NCBI GenBank assembly: GCA_964508365.1
Contig: CAZDTP010000026.1
Span: 1 to 49,397, forward strand
Length of the DNA: 49,397 nt
Direction: 5' to 3'
From: an uncultured archaeon
GTDB lineage: Archaea; Asgardarchaeota; Lokiarchaeia; Sigyniarchaeales; SOKP01
Below, piece after piece: positions 21,188 to 43,656 of the stretch. Below the pieces are notes generated by a model, which saw only the letters and a list, made by a program, of their open reading frames with translations, made no database searches and was not told where the DNA came from. Numbering within the stretch: position 1 is the first letter of the stretch; the number at the start of each line of letters is the position of its first letter. The position numbers were made by a program, and so were the translations under genes.

Positions 21188-21784
21188 ATGACTGAAGTTA
21201 AAGAAAATAAGGAAGATGAGATAGAGGTTTTTCCTTTTATTGAGGGAGATATTATTGATTTAGTTGCTGGCAATTCTAAATGGGTGCAATTAATGTGCAA
21301 ATGGCAAAATAATCCAAATGTTCGTCGTTACGCTCGAAATATGTGGCCCCTTACTATAGAAGATGTAAAAAAATGGTTCGAGCCCTCTCCAGACAACCAT
21401 ACGAGAGAATTTGTTGTATTCACTATTTACCATAAACGCGACAAGCGCCCAATCGGTACAGTTGGATTTGGACGTATTAATTGGGTTAACAGAAATGCTA
21501 ATATTTTCGCTACTATTGGAGAGCCGGAATATTGGGGAAAGGGTATCGCTATTGAGGCAAATAAATTATTGATTAAATATGGTTTTACTGAATTAAACTT
21601 TCATAAAATATATGCAGGAGTATTTACGCCGAATAAAAGATCACTTCGAGCAGCAGAGAAATTGGGTTTTGAAAAGGAAGCAATTTTAAAAGAAGAGATG
21701 TTTGTTGATGGAGTGTATCATGATATCCATAAATTCGCACTTTTCAAGAGAGATTGGATTAAATCCAATCAAAACGAATCATAA
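21188..21784 (+). CDS. RimJ/RimL-family GNAT acetyltransferase, copy 1
   Basis: IGEPEYWGKGIA, FTELNFHKI, NKRSLRAAEKLGF. Confidence 0.92.
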   Translation: MTEVKENKEDEIEVFPFIEGDIIDLVAGNSKWVQLMCKWQNNPNVRRYARNMWPLTIEDVKKWFEPSPDNHTREFVVFTIYHKRDKRPIGTVGFGRINWVNRNANIFATIGEPEYWGKGIAIEANKLLIKYGFTELNFHKIYAGVFTPNKRSLRAAEKLGFEKEAILKEEMFVDGVYHDIHKFALFKRDWIKSNQNES

Positions 21785-21869: not shown

Positions 21870-22466
21870 ATGCCGGAAGAAAAAGAAAAGAGTAAAGAAG
21901 AGATTGAAGTCTTCCCATTTATCGAAGGGAAAATTATTGATTTAGTTGCCCAAAACTCAAAATGGGCTGAACTCATATGCAAATGGAGAAACGATCCAAA
22001 AGTCCGACAATATTCAAGAAATGCGTGGCCAAGGAGTCTGGATGATGTGAAAAAAAGGTTTGAACCTATTCCAGATGGAGATAGACATACTAGAGATTTT
22101 GTAGGTTTTATTATTTATCATAAACGCGATAAGCGTCCAATTGGAGACATCGGATTGAACCGCATTGATTGGGTAAGTCGTCATGCTAATATCTTCGCAA
22201 TGATTGGTGAGCCAGAATATTGGGGGAAGGGTATAGTCGGTGAAGCCGCTCAATTAGTGCTTAAATACGCATTTACAGAATTAAATTTGCACAAAGTAAA
22301 AGCTGGTGTATTTACACCAAATCAAAGATCTCTCCGTGCAGCTGAGAAGCTGGGGTTAATTAAAGAGGCAGTAATGAAAGAGGCGATTTATGTCGACGGA
22401 AAATACCACGATATACATAAATGGGGTTTAACAAAAGAAGAATGGCTAAAAAAAAATAAATTTTAA
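21870..22466 (+). CDS. RimJ/RimL-family GNAT acetyltransferase, copy 2 (tandem paralog)
   Basis: IGEPEYWGKGIV, FTELNLHKV, NQRSLRAAEKLG; same length (198 aa) as copy 1. Confidence 0.92.
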   Translation: MPEEKEKSKEEIEVFPFIEGKIIDLVAQNSKWAELICKWRNDPKVRQYSRNAWPRSLDDVKKRFEPIPDGDRHTRDFVGFIIYHKRDKRPIGDIGLNRIDWVSRHANIFAMIGEPEYWGKGIVGEAAQLVLKYAFTELNLHKVKAGVFTPNQRSLRAAEKLGLIKEAVMKEAIYVDGKYHDIHKWGLTKEEWLKKNKF

Positions 22467-29935: not shown

Positions 29936-32128
29936 ATGGCACGTATGAAAAAAGAGAAAGAATCTAGTAAGTCAAGAGAAAAACCTAAACCAAGTTATGG
30001 TTGGGCTGCTGAAGAAGCTGCTGAAGAAAATTTAGCTGAAGGTCTAAAGAGATCCGATCTAGATGAACGTAAAGTGACTCTAGTCGATAGAGATATTTCT
30101 ACACCCGTAATCGAGACATATGATGCAAAAACAGGTGAATTAGAAGGATCAATTTTACTAAAAGATGGCAATAGAGAAGGAGTAACGGGAATGGTGAAAA
30201 TTATCGAAAATGTTGATGTTTCGTTAGATCACGACTCTAACATAGAATCGATTAACTTTAAAGGCAAGTTAAGCGTGGAAAATCAATCAAAAAAAGACAG
30301 GTTATGGGATATTGATCTTTCCCTCAAAAATATTGAACGTACTAATTTAAAATCAAAAGATATTAAAATTAGAGAGCTCGGAACGGATAAAGATACAAAT
30401 GCTTATACTGAAAATTTTATTATTAAGGAAGAAATCAAAAATTTGCTTCTGATTCAAGAGTATGTTAACACTCTTCCCTCAGCCGATAATGTTCTAAATC
30501 TAAGGGATATTGAATCTAACTTACTCAAAGCGAAAGATAAAACCAGTAAGGCAGGCGCTAAGGTAAAAGAAAGAATAACTCCTGTAGAAGAATACGATGA
30601 AGAAGAGGAGGATGAGGAGGAAGAGGAGGATGAGGAGGAAGAGGAGGATGAATCCCTTGAAGATGGAGGAAATGCCTCAGATGGATCTTCTCTACAAGCT
30701 TTTGGAATTTCAATAGACAAAGAAAATACTGTTACATTTGCTATTGCAATGAGAAATTTATTCGCAAAAGCAATTAAAAATGTAAAAGTAGTGAAAATTA
30801 TTCCTGGGGATTTTAAAAATCCAGTTATAAAAGACACAACAGAAGGACGAGCAGAGGTTGTAGGTAATAAGATTGTCTGGAACATTGAGAGATTAATGCC
30901 TGAAACAACCGTTCTCATGAAATTTACCTGCAGTATCTTAGTAACAGACATTACTAAGAGGAAAACAGGTAAAATTGATGTAACATATGAAGCATCATCT
31001 TCCTTTGCAGAAGGTCTTGACATCGATAAATACGACGCTTATACTAGAAACAAATTTTACGTGGATACGGTAGAACGCGATGAAGAACCAGGCGTTTGGG
31101 ATTGCAAGCTCGTTTTTGAAAATCCTTCAGAATTTATAATTCAACTGTTTAATGCAGATGTTTATTCTCCAGAGAATAAATCTACGAAATACGTTGATAT
31201 AGATCCCAAGGATGTCCCATTATTACCAGCTGGTGCTCAATGGCATTCTAAGATGTGGAAATTTGAATCTGAAGAATATCCTGCTTTTAGGAAGAAGCTC
31301 GAATTTCGCGTAATGCCTGATTTTCAAACAATCGTCAATGGAACTGCTTCTATTTCTGATGTTATATTAGAAATCGCAAGTATAACAGGTGATATGTCTT
31401 ACGATATAGAACAAGTTCCTACGTACAAAGAGAAAGATGTTATTGCGACATTGAAAATGATTAATAATGGTTCAGCCCCATTAAACGAAATTACAGTTGT
31501 TCAGCAACATTTCAATAACGAATATCAACCACCTAAAGCTAAAGAGATAAAGCTATTATGGAACAATGACGAAATTGAGCTTGATTCGGGATCTGTTAAT
31601 ATTGACGGAAATGTCTTTAAAATTTCACTGAAAGATCTCAGAAACTCGAGTAATGGTTTGTTTATGCCGGAATCATCTTTAAAGTTTCAATACCCTATTC
31701 ATTGTATCAATCCAGCTCAAGATTCAAAATTTGAATCAGAGATAATTTACTACACTAATACATTCCCAGTTTCTCAAGAATTAGAGTTTAAGCCAGAAGT
31801 ACCCGTTATAGAAGCCTTACACCTGAGAAGAAGATTTAGAATTGGAAAGGAAGTCCTTCCAATTGGTGATTTGGGCAACTATGAGATAATCTTAACTGTT
31901 GAAAATATTGGTACAGCACCTTTACAAAAGATAGTTCTCATGGACAAGGTTCCGGATAGCTTTGAGTATTCGGATTATTCTATGAAACCCGAAATTACTG
32001 ATGAAGTTGGTGAGGATACACTTAAGTGGACTATTGATAAACTAGATGCTGAAGAGAAAATAGAAATAACTTATAAAATTAGCGGCACTGGAGCTTACTC
32101 TCCAAGCGATGCACAACTTGGACTATAA
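29936..32128 (+). CDS. Cytoplasmic beta-sandwich protein: mu-adaptin C-terminal (MHD)-like region with an acidic insert, followed by further Ig/DUF11-like domains
   Basis: No signal peptide. IIENVDVSLD..SINFKGKLSVEN and KNVKVVKIIP..PVIKDTTEGRAEV..IVWNI..LMKF resemble mu-adaptin segments; C-terminal ILTVENIG..VLMDKVP..LKWTI..ITYKI is DUF11-like. Confidence 0.65.
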   Translation: MARMKKEKESSKSREKPKPSYGWAAEEAAEENLAEGLKRSDLDERKVTLVDRDISTPVIETYDAKTGELEGSILLKDGNREGVTGMVKIIENVDVSLDHDSNIESINFKGKLSVENQSKKDRLWDIDLSLKNIERTNLKSKDIKIRELGTDKDTNAYTENFIIKEEIKNLLLIQEYVNTLPSADNVLNLRDIESNLLKAKDKTSKAGAKVKERITPVEEYDEEEEDEEEEEDEEEEEDESLEDGGNASDGSSLQAFGISIDKENTVTFAIAMRNLFAKAIKNVKVVKIIPGDFKNPVIKDTTEGRAEVVGNKIVWNIERLMPETTVLMKFTCSILVTDITKRKTGKIDVTYEASSSFAEGLDIDKYDAYTRNKFYVDTVERDEEPGVWDCKLVFENPSEFIIQLFNADVYSPENKSTKYVDIDPKDVPLLPAGAQWHSKMWKFESEEYPAFRKKLEFRVMPDFQTIVNGTASISDVILEIASITGDMSYDIEQVPTYKEKDVIATLKMINNGSAPLNEITVVQQHFNNEYQPPKAKEIKLLWNNDEIELDSGSVNIDGNVFKISLKDLRNSSNGLFMPESSLKFQYPIHCINPAQDSKFESEIIYYTNTFPVSQELEFKPEVPVIEALHLRRRFRIGKEVLPIGDLGNYEIILTVENIGTAPLQKIVLMDKVPDSFEYSDYSMKPEITDEVGEDTLKWTIDKLDAEEKIEITYKISGTGAYSPSDAQLGL
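30602..30651 (+). repeat. 18-bp tandem repeat (gaagaggaggatgaggag) x2.8 encoding a poly-Glu/Asp tract
   Basis: Units at 30602, 30620 and 30638 (partial). Confidence 0.9.
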
Positions 32129-33971: not shown

Positions 33972-34409
33972 TCAATTCAAGATAAAAGCTTTAATCTCGT
34001 TCTGAAATGGTTCAAATTGATTAAGTTCTGTTAAGTCCTTATTACTATATCTCGTTATAAAAAGGTTCAAGATGGGGTCAATTTTTTCAAGGAATTTTTT
34101 AACAAACTTATCGGTATCTTTCTTTTTTTTGTCTACTAAACCATATAAAATGACAGGTTCCTTTAAATCGCAATTTTCAGCTAGCATTTCAAGGGCTTTA
34201 AAAATAAATAGGATGTTCCCTGATTCTAAATATTCTAATGAAAGATTGTTAAAAGCGGTTTTGGTAAATATGTTTATTGCTGAAATAAATCCCCCTCTCA
34301 AATCCATGCTTGCTTTGCTAAGATTTTCCTTTTTTTCGATTTTCTTAAACTCGTAGCTTACCAGAATAAATCCTCGGAATACGATACCTATTTCGTACAG
34401 TTCTTTCAT
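33972..34409 (-). CDS. Stand-alone longin-like protein
   Basis: N-terminal beta-hairpin EIGIVFRGFILVSYEF, helix DLRGGFISAINIF, strands LEYLESGNILFIF and VILYGLVD, C-terminal helices ending QFEPFQNEI. Confidence 0.62.
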   Translation of the reverse strand: MKELYEIGIVFRGFILVSYEFKKIEKKENLSKASMDLRGGFISAINIFTKTAFNNLSLEYLESGNILFIFKALEMLAENCDLKEPVILYGLVDKKKKDTDKFVKKFLEKIDPILNLFITRYSNKDLTELNQFEPFQNEIKAFILN

Positions 34410-39603: not shown

Positions 39604-42600
39604 ATGAAATCGACAGATAAGCGTTATCTTATTACAATTTTGATATTTTCATTGTTGATGATTTTTAATTTTACTTTTCCCAAAATCTTTTACTCTTCAG
39701 AAGTTACATTCAACGGGGAATCACTAGATTCAGAGATCAATAAAACCCTAAAATCTTCTGTTGCGAGTGATTGGCAAGAGGATGGTGTTCCCGTGTGTAC
39801 AGAATTGGAAACCCAAAGCAGCGTTGTGTTGTGTAGTGATGAAGAAGGAGGTACCATATTAGCATGGGAAGATTCAAGAGTTAGTGGACCAGGTATTTAT
39901 GCCCAAAAGCTCAATTCTACAGGAAACTTTTTATGGGGTCCTAATGGTACAGCAATCTGTACAGCAGATGAATACCAAGGACGGATTCAAGTTTGTAATG
40001 ACGGAGCTGGAGGAGCAATCATTACATGGCAAGATCAACGTGATGAAGGTTCTCCTTATGGGGATATTTACGCACAACGAATTAACTCCACGGGAGATGT
40101 TCAATGGGATATTAATGGTGTGCCTATATGTACAGAAATTGATACTCAGTATTACCCTAGGATTATAAGTAATAATATGGGTGGTGCGATTATTACATGG
40201 CAAGATAGAAGGGACGGGAATTATGATATTTATGCTCAGAGAATCGATTCCTCCGGAAATTCATTATGGAGCGCTAATGGTACTGCAATTTGTACAGAAG
40301 CAGGGAGTCAAGATACTGCTTATATGTGTAGTGATGCTGCTGGCGGCGCAATAATTGCTTGGAGTGATGAAAGAATATGGTCAAATTATGAGGTTTACGC
40401 TCAACGAATTAACTCCACGGGAGATGTTCAATGGGGTACTAATGGTACACTGATTACTACAGAAACAAATGATCAAATATTTAAAGGAATTAGTGTTGAT
40501 GGAACTGGGGGGACATTTTTAGCGATTGAAGATGATGGTGATTTCTATGTTAAGCGCATAAACTCAACTGGTGGTTTGGAATGGGGGGGAAATTGGACTC
40601 CTATATGTACCGATAGTGGTTCAAACCAAGATTTTAAAATTTCGAGTGATAATAATAGAGGTGCGATTATGGTCTGGAGCGATGCAAAACTGGGCTATAA
40701 TGCTTATAATATATATGCACAAATGGTAAATTCTACAGGAGATATTCAATGGGAGATTAATGGAAAATTAATTTGTAATGCAATAAGAGATCAACGTGGA
40801 CCAGAAGTCTGCCACGATGGTAATGGAGGGGCGATTATTACGTGGAATGATGAAAGAAACGATCCAACCGAGAGTGACATTTTTGATATATATTATCAAG
40901 TAATTACTAAAGAGGGAAAAAGCTTATTAGAAGCTAATGGCTCAGCCGTATGTTTAGCAATTGATCGACAATATAATCCAAAGATCATAAGCGATGGTGA
41001 GGGAGGGGCCTTTATTGCTTGGCAAGATCAAAGAAATGCCGTTATTACGGAAACGGACATTTATATGCAACACCTAAATGGATTTGATATTCCTATTTGT
41101 GTCTCTCACGCATCCGATCCCTTTGAAATTCAAATATGTAGTGATGAAAATAACGGCGCGATTATCGCCTGGAGAGGAGACACTAGCGGGCTTGGAAGGA
41201 CGATTTTTGCTCAGAGAATTGATTATGAGGGTAAACTCATGTGGTCTAAAAATGGCGTTGCGTTAGCAACAGGTAGTAATCATAAAGATTATCTACAAAT
41301 ATGCAGCGATGGCAACGGAGGTGCGATCGTCACTTGGGAAGATTATAGGAGCGGGGAGGGGGATATTTATGCTCAAAGGATTGACGCAAGCGGAAATATA
41401 AAATGGCTTATAAATGGATTAGGTATAAGTAACTATACAAATATACAAAAACGACCTCAAATATGTAGCGATGGGAGTGGAGGTGCCATAATTGCATGGT
41501 GGGATAATAGGACTGGGAATTGGGATATTTATGCTCAACGTGTTAATGCAGATGGAACCATGCTTTGGATGCTTAACGGTACAGAAATAAGCACAGAAGA
41601 TGACATGCAAATAGAAATAAGTATTGTGAGTGACATGAATCATGGAGCGATAATTACTTGGAGCGATTACAGATATGGTGGTGAGGACGTGTTTGGTCAG
41701 CGTATTGATGCAACTGGAAATACTTTATGGACGCCTAATGGTACAGGAATATGTACTTACACAGGATCTCAAATATTACCACATACAATCAGTGATGGCA
41801 CAGGAGGTGCTATAATTACCTGGAGAGATAGGCGGAATTTTAATTACGATATTTACGGGCAACGAATTAATTCCACAGGAGATTTTCAATGGAACCCTGA
41901 TGGAATTCCTGTATGTATAAAACCAGACACTCAAATACCAACCAAAATATGTACTGATGGAAACGAGGGGGCAATCGTAATATGGGGGGAAGATACTGGA
42001 GTACCGACCGGAGAAGATGTTTTTGCCCAGCGAATTAACGCAACTGGAGATAATGTATGGGATTCTAACGGTAATATCATATGCAATGCTTCTGGTGATC
42101 AAATGTTTCCGGATATTTGTGAAGATGGCAACGGAGGAGCTATCATTACTTGGCAGGATTCTAGAGGCTTAAATAATGATATTTATGCTCAGCGAGTAGA
42201 TTCAGAGGGCATTATACAATGGAAGGAAAACGGTATAGCTTTATGTACCGCTATGGATGATCAACGAACTCCACATATAGTTAGTAATGGAGATGGTGGG
42301 GCAATCCTGGCTTGGCAAGATGAAAGGTATCTGATCAGTAACGATGATATTTATGCGGGAATTATATATAATAAAAAACCATCTTCGAGCAATCCTGGAG
42401 ACATAATTACTTCTGAAATAGGTGATGAAACAATAGATTGGGTTCTTCATGATGACGATGGTAAAGGTGGTCAATATCAAGTTATAGCAGAGAATATCCT
42501 AGGTCATTATTATACTTGGATTGATTGGACTCCATGGACTTCTGATAATTCCATTATTATCCCAATAAATCGATCTGCTACCGGCACTTTCAATTATACA

Positions 42601-43656
42601 ATAAGATACTCTGATGATCAGAATAAATCTGGAATCGAAGATACTGTTATCGTTTCAATCAAGCCAATACCAGGAGATATTTTATTAAGTAGTGATGCAG
42701 GAATTCCTGATGATGATGGTATATTTACCTTAACCTGGAATGAATCACATAGTTCAAAAAATTTCACTATATATGAATATCATAGCTACATTTCTGAAAT
42801 AAATGGATCACTAATTTCTCTACTGGAAGGTACAACATCTCTCTCACTTCCACGTTCTGGTTATATCGATGGTACTTATTATTTTATTGTAGTTGCTTAC
42901 AACGATTATGGGAATAAATCATCCAACTGTCTACGCGTGGATGTCTTATTCCCAAATCCTCCGGGACCACTTACATTATCAGCTATAGATACTATTCCCA
43001 ACGATGGAAACTTTACTCTCGTATGGGATGTGTCTGATCGAGCAGACAATTACTCGGTATATGAACATTCGAGTTATATTACAGGAATCAATGGAAGTTT
43101 AACAATCCTAGCTACTGAAATTTCGATTTTAAGTTTACATTTAGGGGATTATACAAATGGAACTTATTATTTCATAATTGAAGCAAAGAATATTAATGGA
43201 ACTACTCTTTCGAATTGTTTAACTATTGTTATTAGCATTCCACCACCAGGACCACCAGGTTCATTTACATTGTCTTCAAATGCAGGAACTCCTGATAATG
43301 ATGGAAACTTTACTCTCGTATGGGAAGGTTCTAATCAAGCAAATAATTACTCTGTATATGAATATTCAAGTTTTATTACTGAAATTAATGGAAGTTTAAC
43401 CCTCTTGGAAGGAGATCTGAATATTCTAACTCATTCTTTGAGTAGTTATGCTGATGGAACGTATTACTTCATTATAGTGGCACATAATGATTATGGAGAT
43501 ACATTATCAAATTGTATAGAAATTATCGTTCAAATTCCCCCGCCTAACGGTTCTACAAATCCAGTAATTCCGGGATATAATGTTCTTTATTTCATAGTGG
43601 CTTTAAGCCTTGGTATTTATTTCATACTGAAAAAGAGATTAAAAAGAATTAAATAA
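39604..43656 (+). CDS. Large cell-surface protein: signal peptide, 16 beta-propeller-like repeats, an Ig-like domain, three Fn3-like modules and an IPGY-TM-basic C-terminal anchor (Loki-CTERM-like)
   Basis: Repeat consensus W..NG..IC....Q....I.SDG.GGAII.W.D.R....DIYAQRI...G; C-terminus IPGYNVLYFIVALSLGIYFILKKRLKRIK; many NxS/T sequons. Confidence 0.9.
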   Translation: MKSTDKRYLITILIFSLLMIFNFTFPKIFYSSEVTFNGESLDSEINKTLKSSVASDWQEDGVPVCTELETQSSVVLCSDEEGGTILAWEDSRVSGPGIYAQKLNSTGNFLWGPNGTAICTADEYQGRIQVCNDGAGGAIITWQDQRDEGSPYGDIYAQRINSTGDVQWDINGVPICTEIDTQYYPRIISNNMGGAIITWQDRRDGNYDIYAQRIDSSGNSLWSANGTAICTEAGSQDTAYMCSDAAGGAIIAWSDERIWSNYEVYAQRINSTGDVQWGTNGTLITTETNDQIFKGISVDGTGGTFLAIEDDGDFYVKRINSTGGLEWGGNWTPICTDSGSNQDFKISSDNNRGAIMVWSDAKLGYNAYNIYAQMVNSTGDIQWEINGKLICNAIRDQRGPEVCHDGNGGAIITWNDERNDPTESDIFDIYYQVITKEGKSLLEANGSAVCLAIDRQYNPKIISDGEGGAFIAWQDQRNAVITETDIYMQHLNGFDIPICVSHASDPFEIQICSDENNGAIIAWRGDTSGLGRTIFAQRIDYEGKLMWSKNGVALATGSNHKDYLQICSDGNGGAIVTWEDYRSGEGDIYAQRIDASGNIKWLINGLGISNYTNIQKRPQICSDGSGGAIIAWWDNRTGNWDIYAQRVNADGTMLWMLNGTEISTEDDMQIEISIVSDMNHGAIITWSDYRYGGEDVFGQRIDATGNTLWTPNGTGICTYTGSQILPHTISDGTGGAIITWRDRRNFNYDIYGQRINSTGDFQWNPDGIPVCIKPDTQIPTKICTDGNEGAIVIWGEDTGVPTGEDVFAQRINATGDNVWDSNGNIICNASGDQMFPDICEDGNGGAIITWQDSRGLNNDIYAQRVDSEGIIQWKENGIALCTAMDDQRTPHIVSNGDGGAILAWQDERYLISNDDIYAGIIYNKKPSSSNPGDIITSEIGDETIDWVLHDDDGKGGQYQVIAENILGHYYTWIDWTPWTSDNSIIIPINRSATGTFNYTIRYSDDQNKSGIEDTVIVSIKPIPGDILLSSDAGIPDDDGIFTLTWNESHSSKNFTIYEYHSYISEINGSLISLLEGTTSLSLPRSGYIDGTYYFIVVAYNDYGNKSSNCLRVDVLFPNPPGPLTLSAIDTIPNDGNFTLVWDVSDRADNYSVYEHSSYITGINGSLTILATEISILSLHLGDYTNGTYYFIIEAKNINGTTLSNCLTIVISIPPPGPPGSFTLSSNAGTPDNDGNFTLVWEGSNQANNYSVYEYSSFITEINGSLTLLEGDLNILTHSLSSYADGTYYFIIVAHNDYGDTLSNCIEIIVQIPPPNGSTNPVIPGYNVLYFIVALSLGIYFILKKRLKRIK

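Follow-up and report, generated by a model that had tools for sequence, protein, structure and literature searches.

A predicted two-subdomain mu-homology domain in a multi-domain protein of an Asgard archaeon

All five Pfam domains of the adaptor protein (AP) complexes were found to occur in Asgard archaea by Eme et al. (2023; Nature 618:992), where they are not fused and are sparsely distributed (PMC10307638). The detection was at the Pfam level only, and Supplementary Table 3 of that study contains 44 rows for PF00928 (Adap_comp_sub) as candidate eukaryotic signature proteins. The present analysis concerns a protein of this kind encoded on a stretch of 49,397 nucleotides, referred to here as the window (contig CAZDTP010000026.1, positions 1 to 49,397, assembly GCA_964508365.1), from an uncultured archaeon of the Lokiarchaeia. 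The source assembly has a size of 4.07 Mb in 149 contigs with a completeness estimate of 100%, and the G+C content of the window is low (about 0.25–0.40). The gene is an open reading frame (ORF) at 29936–32128 on the plus strand (taken from the ORF list) and encodes a protein of 730 amino acids (P0001) with a predicted mu-homology domain (MHD). The protein is read here, with a probability of about 0.6, as a soluble cytoplasmic multi-domain scaffold whose core (residues 80–475) is truly homologous to the eukaryotic MHD.

When the first 72 residues of the first listed PF00928 candidate (Jordarchaeia_GBS07_35160) were compared with P0001 by BLASTP, residues 81–148 were matched at 37% identity over 68 ungapped positions (E 1e-12), which places P0001 in the same family as the published Adap_comp_sub candidates. 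The motif EPxxWxCxxxFxNxSEF is also shared by the Jordarchaeial protein. At least one other listed PF00928 candidate, an all-helical protein, looks unrelated. Two later structure-based surveys of Asgard archaea contain no discussion of the MHD family, and no literature on the mu-homology domain by that name in Asgard archaea or in archaea generally was found. Matches to the MHD region are present in 333 of the 399 genomes of the phylum and in 79 of its 85 genera, often several per genome, a count which bounds the family loosely as many of the distant matches cover only lobe B and the return strands of the domain (described below). The distribution is nevertheless far from sparse. One distant match carries the label Bathyarchaeota. 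Since the family has already been published, what is gained is confirmation and context rather than discovery, the new elements being the two-lobe fold model, the distribution, the C-terminal immunoglobulin (Ig)-like domains, an acidic loop and the linkage to a propeller gene.

Predicted fold of the mu-homology domain

Two AlphaFold 2 (AF2) models were obtained. Model 1 covers the full-length protein and was built with 27 close sequences, giving a predicted local distance difference test score (pLDDT) of 66 with a poor region at residues 373–456. A phmmer search of 1.84 billion representative proteins returned 179 relatives, from which 93 diverse sequences were used in an alignment. Model 2, covering residues 57–470, was built from these 93 diverse homologues without templates and reached a pLDDT of 90.7 and a predicted template-modelling score of 0.82. 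The strands at residues 373–475, poorly modelled with the 27 close sequences, reached a pLDDT of 93–98 with the 93 diverse ones.

Despite the mediocre quality of model 1, MHDs ranked first when it was searched with Foldseek, and VIA-align aligned its residues 80..475 with residues 168..435 of mu2 with a Z of 18.1 and a root-mean-square deviation (rmsd) of 3.0 Å (223 of 245 residues). For model 2, the VIA-align search was exhaustive over 48,161 representative PDB chains and independent of Foldseek. Ranks 1–10 were all occupied by MHDs with 205–223 aligned residues and Z between 12.5 and 16.9, namely mu2 (16.9, 223 aligned), mu4 (16.5), mu3 (16.2), delta-COP (14.8), mu1 (14.7), SGIP1 (14.1), yeast delta-COP (13.3) and Syp1 (12.5) among others. 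At rank 11 the Z falls to 10.9 with about 105 aligned residues, the matches from there being single Ig sandwiches (pilins and macroglobulin domains). The top 50 Foldseek matches were likewise all MHDs (E 4e-10, target-normalised template-modelling score 0.6–0.72), and about 88% of the mu2 domain is covered by the structural match, at a sequence identity to MHD structures of only 9–16%. In both models the all-beta domain consists of two sandwich subdomains, and subdomain B (lobe B) interrupts subdomain A (lobe A), separating its N-terminal from its C-terminal strands; the sequential alignments with mu2 take in 223–225 of about 250 residues. On these models, the assignment of residues 80–475 to a genuine two-subdomain mu-homology domain, with B within A, is solid.

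The original prediction, made from the sequence alone, had recognised a mu-homology domain by eye, and this is borne out by the AF2 models and by the first ten ranks among the 48,161 chains. Structure prediction had been proposed as a check, and the topology found is specific to MHDs, so the matches are not generic DUF11/BatD ones alone. The sequence segments on which the recognition was founded all lie in the ORF at 29936–32128 (plus strand) in the order given, with IIENVDVSL...SVEN at residues 89–116, FIIKEE...EYV at 161–177, IKNVKVVKIIP at 280–290, KDTTEGRAEV at 299–308, IVWNI at 313–317 and SFAEGLDIDKY at 356–366. Their resemblance to mu also stands, as the third and fourth blocks fall within the stretch that matches PF00928 positions of about 123–240 (in 18 of the 27 close homologues) and AP-3 mu, and the first agrees with the structural offsets. 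The limits of the domain have to be redrawn. Window positions 30191–31050 (residues 86–372) had been proposed, whereas the domain occupies residues 80–475 and extends to window position 31360. About three extra sandwiches over some 360 amino acids had been expected after the MHD; there are two, over about 255 amino acids (residues 476–630 and 631–730), the third having been miscounted because residues 373–475 belong to the MHD.

Sequence relationships and the cargo pocket

The profile PF00928 was matched by 18 of the 27 close homologues of P0001 (best E 1.2e-9), and three homologues, at 33–34.5 bits, pass its cut-off of 31.6 bits. The match always involves profile positions of about 123–240 and the stretch equivalent to residues 261–372 of P0001, and relatives at 33–35% identity match PF00928 as well. 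No match was obtained in a six-frame PF00928 search of the archaeon's own genome. When a hidden Markov model (HMM) of the family was built from the 93 diverse members, the best of all PDB sequences was AP-3 mu (E 0.0058, over the lobe B stretch), followed by weaker matches to mu1 and delta-COP; earlier searches of PDB sequences, by phmmer with P0001 and with an HMM of the 27 close homologues, had returned nothing relevant. At the level of sequence, the family thus has a weak but consistent relationship to the AP mu subunits. Two further weak HMM matches, to the gamma-adaptin ear 1gyv (E 0.15, not significant) and Pyrodictium AbpX (E 0.18), were discounted as a likeness common to beta-sandwiches in general.

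P0001 itself scores 39.9 bits with DUF11 (PF01345), whose cut-off is 24.6 (E 6.2e-10, residues 261–354, in two stretches). All 27 of the 27 homologues match this profile too, and in the homologues lobe B matches DUF11 as strongly as, or more strongly than, PF00928. By hhalign, lobe B is related to the DUF11 domain at the C-terminus of P0001 (83%, E 9e-6), and nothing was found for other domain pairs within the protein. In the homologues P0097 and P0098 the best DUF11 stretch is C-terminal, and two proteins of 4,692 and 6,338 amino acids, with 12–14 matching stretches each, match only the lobe B part of the query. Lobe B is a DUF11-type unit, paralogous to the C-terminal DUF11 domain. A link between the MHD and repeated Ig sandwiches had been suggested in advance; it is supported in part, by the DUF11 and hhalign matches of lobe B just given. 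At least where lobe B is concerned, these favour a contribution of Ig-type units to the domain. A different architecture, unlike that of P0001, was observed in P0237 (1,322 amino acids), a long family member in which DUF11 and Adap_comp_sub-like regions occur together with an NTPase domain of NACHT/NPHP3 type at the C-terminus.

In mu2, the pocket for YxxPhi signals is formed by residues F174, D176, K203, W421 and R423. The D176-type aspartate is essential for YxxPhi binding and holds the tyrosine hydroxyl. By structural offsets from three targets, K88 of P0001 falls at the position of this aspartate (mu2 D176, mu1 D174, mu4 D190), and its column varies across the 93 sequences (K 28, E 15, R 8, T 7 and others), the published Jordarchaeial relative having D. 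The canonical aspartate therefore appears to be replaced and is not conserved in the family, which argues against a pocket of the mu1–4 type and against the YxxPhi-type cargo binding that the original prediction had implied. The positions that are conserved in the family are E91, G110, N116, S118, R122, W124, D125, K287 and N396.

Domain organisation and gene neighbourhood

The features of the protein and of its two conserved neighbours are listed in Table 1. Within the N-terminal helix region, G22, E27, E30, A34, L37, R39, D43 and V47 are invariant in the alignment (A1), and the hairpin that follows it, with strands at model residues 2–6 and 13–18, carries the invariant TPVIETYD..TG.LEG (also A1). 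The first part of subdomain A has the family signature G110, N116, S118 and R122-x-W124-D125. Between this part and subdomain B, the sole basic domain of the protein, the acidic loop of 54 residues is inserted. The return strands bear the family motif DEEPxxWxCxLxFENxSEF (residues 382–400). The first C-terminal sandwich aligns (model residues 482..627) to a SpaD pilin domain with a Z of 14.0 and an rmsd of 2.4 over 134 residues. Pfam matches of the acidic loop to CENP-B_dimeris and Radial_spoke were considered spurious, these being acidic low-complexity families. An antisense ORF of 189 amino acids at 30454–31023 (minus strand) contains a long poly-Ser run, which arises where the loop's poly-Glu codons are read in reverse, and it is almost certainly not a gene.

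Table 1. Features of the MHD protein P0001 and conserved neighbouring genes in the window
Feature	Residues	Window position	Strand	Basis or remark
Predicted disordered N-terminus	1–56	29936..30103	+	pLDDT <50; no Pfam match
Conserved acidic helix	about 22–47	29999-30076	+	model helix at 25–36; lies within disordered N-terminus
Conserved beta-hairpin preceding MHD	57–79	30104..30172	+	pLDDT 90–95
MHD subdomain A part 1, helix at end	80–204	30173..30547	+	structural alignment, column conservation
Disordered poly-Glu/Asp loop, net charge -21	205–258	30548..30709	+	pLDDT <50, composition
MHD subdomain B, net charge +3	259–372	30710..31051	+	DUF11 and PF00928 matches
Return strands completing subdomain A	373–475	31052..31360	+	structural alignments reach residue 475/mu2 435
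First C-terminal beta-sandwich, pilin/CnaA-like, about 150 amino acids	476–630	31361..31825	+	pLDDT about 75–88
Second C-terminal beta-sandwich, DUF11	631–730	31826..32125	+	DUF11 Pfam matches
BBS7/BBS2/ITFG2-type beta-propeller gene, 559 amino acids		32287..33966	+	PF23743 Beta-prop_BBS7, E 3.3e-25
145-amino-acid gene, convergent, conserved neighbour		33972..34409	-	in 69/71 orthologous loci

The MHD protein as a whole has a net charge of -49 and an isoelectric point of 4.65. No hydrophobic segment (highest Kyte-Doolittle 19-residue mean 1.25) and no signal peptide were detected, the N-terminus being hydrophilic and charged. The lack of a signal peptide and of hydrophobic segments, together with the net charge, indicates that the protein is cytoplasmic.

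In the public collection, 361 homologues of near full length were found, with identities of 67–96% among the 120 matches listed; those of the listed matches that are named belong to Lokiarchaeota, Promethearchaeota or Promethearchaeia. Eighty orthologous loci were collected (best-segment identity 55–96%), most of them titled Promethearchaeota or Promethearchaeia. In the archaeon's own genome, a query with the MHD region matched only the MHD gene itself and thus no paralogues. One orthologue of 96% identity (P0004, locus L049, DATKTW010000130.1) lies on a contig with the record title 'Candidatus Nanopelagicaceae bacterium'; this metagenome-assembled contig looks mis-binned or mislabelled, since the other close relatives are all Promethearchaeota.

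In 74 of 75 orthologous loci, the propeller gene comes directly downstream of the MHD gene and in the same orientation. In a locus from another family of the same order (L034), the propeller gene adjoins the MHD gene in convergent orientation, without a glycerate kinase gene, and the two proteins are only 37% (MHD) and 25% (propeller) identical to those of the present locus. This pairing is better evidence for coupling of the MHD and propeller genes than synteny within the clade. Around four more distant members (L035, L036, L044 and L045), no propeller was found within about 6–8 kb at a tblastn E ≤ 1e-5. A complex prediction with the full propeller protein and only residues 57–470 of the MHD protein gave a score of 0.00, a 'no answer' that has no bearing on whether the two bind. 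The tail of the propeller protein (residues about 370–559) resembles by eye two small winged-helix-like units with a charged linker between them and ends in a conserved PKGWS motif, common to the orthologues and to the 25%-identical relative in L034. At L038 (G275:C7, 7264–16132), two tandem MHD-family paralogues of 1,033 and 701 amino acids precede an opposite-strand gene for a protein of 921 amino acids in which a BBS7-like propeller comes after an N-terminal extension of 500 residues.

For the protein of 145 amino acids, no Pfam match beyond noise up to E 10 and no match in a PDB HMM search were obtained, and hhalign against the two seven-transmembrane (7TM)-longin proteins of the window gave a probability of <1%. 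A longin fold is suggested for it by one signal, an ESM Atlas lead (score 0.88) to a cluster in which Fuz_longin_1 occurs in 34% of members. Clat_adaptor_s (PF01217) had no match in the archaeon's own genome at E ≤ 1 in a six-frame search. A fused longin was found neither in P0001, where residues 1–56 have no Pfam domain, nor in the eight longer family members scanned, and the absence of a longin-MHD fusion among family proteins of >1,278 amino acids is weak evidence. The genome does have HEAT proteins that match Adaptin_N, a model which also matches in ordinary prokaryote control genomes. At a locus of a distant Asgard family (L045, G091:C14, 5981–6514), a HEAT-repeat protein of 178 amino acids (HEAT_2 E 2e-25, weak Adaptin_N E 1.5e-4) is encoded convergent to the MHD homologue at a distance of 12 nucleotides. 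This adjacency may be chance, small HEAT proteins being common.

Elsewhere in the window, an ORF of 1,350 amino acids (39604–43656, plus strand) has no Pfam family at E ≤ 0.001, and a tandem pair of GNAT (Acetyltransf_3) paralogues of 198 amino acids each is located at 21188–21784 and 21870–22466 (plus strand).

Interpretation and comparison with known systems

Several points weigh against the reading of P0001 as a scaffold built on a true MHD. P0001 itself has no PF00928 match in Pfam at E ≤ 1, showing only DUF11 and low-complexity noise. The sequence support is confined to lobe B, which matches DUF11 equally, and for lobe A homology is argued from structure prediction and a weak match to delta-COP (E 0.34). 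MHD structures were included in the training of AF2, so that an over-call of the fold is conceivable, even though no templates were used. The comparison of pockets was made through alignment offsets only (80 to mu2 168, 83 to mu4 185 and 80 to mu1 166). An unrelated upstream gene for glycerate kinase is kept as faithfully as the neighbours of the MHD gene (70 of 73 loci), and gene order within the clade is therefore by itself weak evidence for functional coupling. The functional part of the reading we infer throughout.

Alternatively, P0001 could be an ordinary DUF11/Ig-repeat protein whose MHD likeness is convergent or an artefact of prediction. In favour of this are the Pfam matches of P0001 to DUF11 only, the identity of 9–16% to MHD structures and the fact that the stretch matching PF00928 is the one matching DUF11, the latter often more strongly. 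We give it little credence, as single Ig sandwiches reach a Z of ≤ 10.9 over about 105 residues against 16.9 over 223 for the MHDs, the inserted-domain connectivity recurs in two independent models, three homologues lie above the curated PF00928 threshold and AP-3 mu is the best PDB sequence for the family HMM. DUF11 and pilin-like C-terminal domains would also fit an adhesin-like protein outside the cell or on its surface, which is what many DUF11 proteins are. Such a location is extremely improbable here, as P0001 lacks both a signal peptide and transmembrane segments, has a charged and disordered N-terminus and a long poly-Glu loop, and is encoded among neighbours of cytoplasmic type.

Granted an MHD, the protein could be the functional equivalent of an AP/COPI medium subunit, recognising YxxPhi-type sorting signals in the tails of membrane proteins as part of an adaptor-like complex with a separate longin (the protein of 145 amino acids), HEAT/adaptin-like large subunits and a propeller coat. 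The MHD fold, the Adaptin_N-matching HEAT proteins in the genome and the conservation of the three genes as a cluster, in which one language-model lead connects the small protein with longin clusters, are in keeping with this. It is very unlikely all the same, given K88 at the position of mu2 D176 by offsets in a column that varies in the family, the absence of Clat_adaptor_s matches from the genome at E ≤ 1, no longin signal for the small protein by Pfam, PDB HMM or hhalign, Adaptin_N matches that occur in ordinary prokaryote controls too, and no longin-MHD fusion among the longer family members. Lack of the cargo-pocket aspartate would instead suit a scaffold subunit of a non-trafficking cytoplasmic complex with the BBS7/ITFG2-like propeller at its centre, such as a regulatory platform or one linked to small GTPases in the manner of BBSome or KICSTOR components, in which the MHD is a structural interaction module only. 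The tight linkage to the propeller gene, independent of orientation at the level of the order, is a further argument for it, while the four distant members without a nearby propeller mean that the pairing is not family-wide; on balance such a role is rather unlikely.

As a soluble cytoplasmic scaffold, the protein would probably serve as a platform for protein-protein interactions, by analogy with the MHDs of muniscins, stonins and delta-COP, and would use the edges and faces of its sandwiches to bind partner proteins or short linear motifs. As the key aspartate is apparently absent, its specificity is probably not that of the YxxPhi pocket of mu1–mu4. A binding site of its own is suggested by N116, S118, R122, W124, D125, K287, N396 and the DEEPxxWxC motif. 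The poly-Glu loop, placed beside the sole basic lobe (B), may act as an electrostatic latch or as bait for basic partners, and the two C-terminal Ig-like domains and the N-terminal helix could provide extra docking surfaces, possibly for the propeller protein.

The medium subunits of adaptors have a central part in the vesicle traffic of eukaryotes, and their origin is an open question in eukaryogenesis. The present locus offers a well-supported soluble Asgard MHD that is directly expressible. If it were found to bind peptide motifs or the propeller, recognition of the cargo-adaptor type would predate eukaryotes; if no such binding occurred, the MHD would first have been a general scaffold. 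The link to DUF11 provides a concrete hypothesis for a prokaryotic origin of the MHD. A more far-reaching proposal, which we regard as doubtful, is that the MHD, BBS7-like propeller and 145-amino-acid proteins form a three-gene proto-adaptor or coat module in Lokiarchaeia-type Asgard archaea and that, lobe B being a bona fide DUF11 unit paralogous to the C-terminal domain, the family records the origin of the eukaryotic MHD, in which a DUF11-type Ig domain was inserted into another sandwich before fusion with a longin.

Among described proteins, the Asgard Adap_comp_sub candidates (PMC10307638) are of the same family as P0001, and like it have no Clat_adaptor_s longin fused. With DUF11 proteins (PF01345), the likeness is that both lobe B (residues 261–354) and the C-terminal domain match the profile and each other. 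Tandem DUF11-repeat proteins consist of independent repeats, whereas the MHD protein has one DUF11-like unit inside another sandwich and no signal peptide. Muniscins (FCHo/SGIP1/Syp1) and delta-COP resemble it in having an MHD outside the longin-MHD context or with ligands other than YxxPhi (DPF and WxW are named in the titles of PDB entries). The structural match to SGIP1, Syp1 and delta-COP (Z 14.1, 12.5 and 13.3–14.8) is slightly weaker than that to mu2, and the MHD of these proteins is C-terminal, whereas in P0001 it has two Ig-like domains after it and only a disordered segment before it.

The closest likeness in predicted fold and connectivity is to the MHD of the AP mu subunits (AP-2 mu2, residues about 160–435; PDB 5wrk, 1bw8 and 2pr9; mu1, mu3A and mu4), with a Z of 16–18, an rmsd of about 3 Å over about 223 of 250 residues, sequence similarity in lobe B and a flexible loop at an equivalent position. 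Unlike the AP mu subunits, the MHD protein has no N-terminal longin and is strongly acidic overall, with about 140 extra residues (the poly-Glu loop and longer return strands), K88 apparently replacing the YxxPhi aspartate and two Ig-like domains after the MHD.

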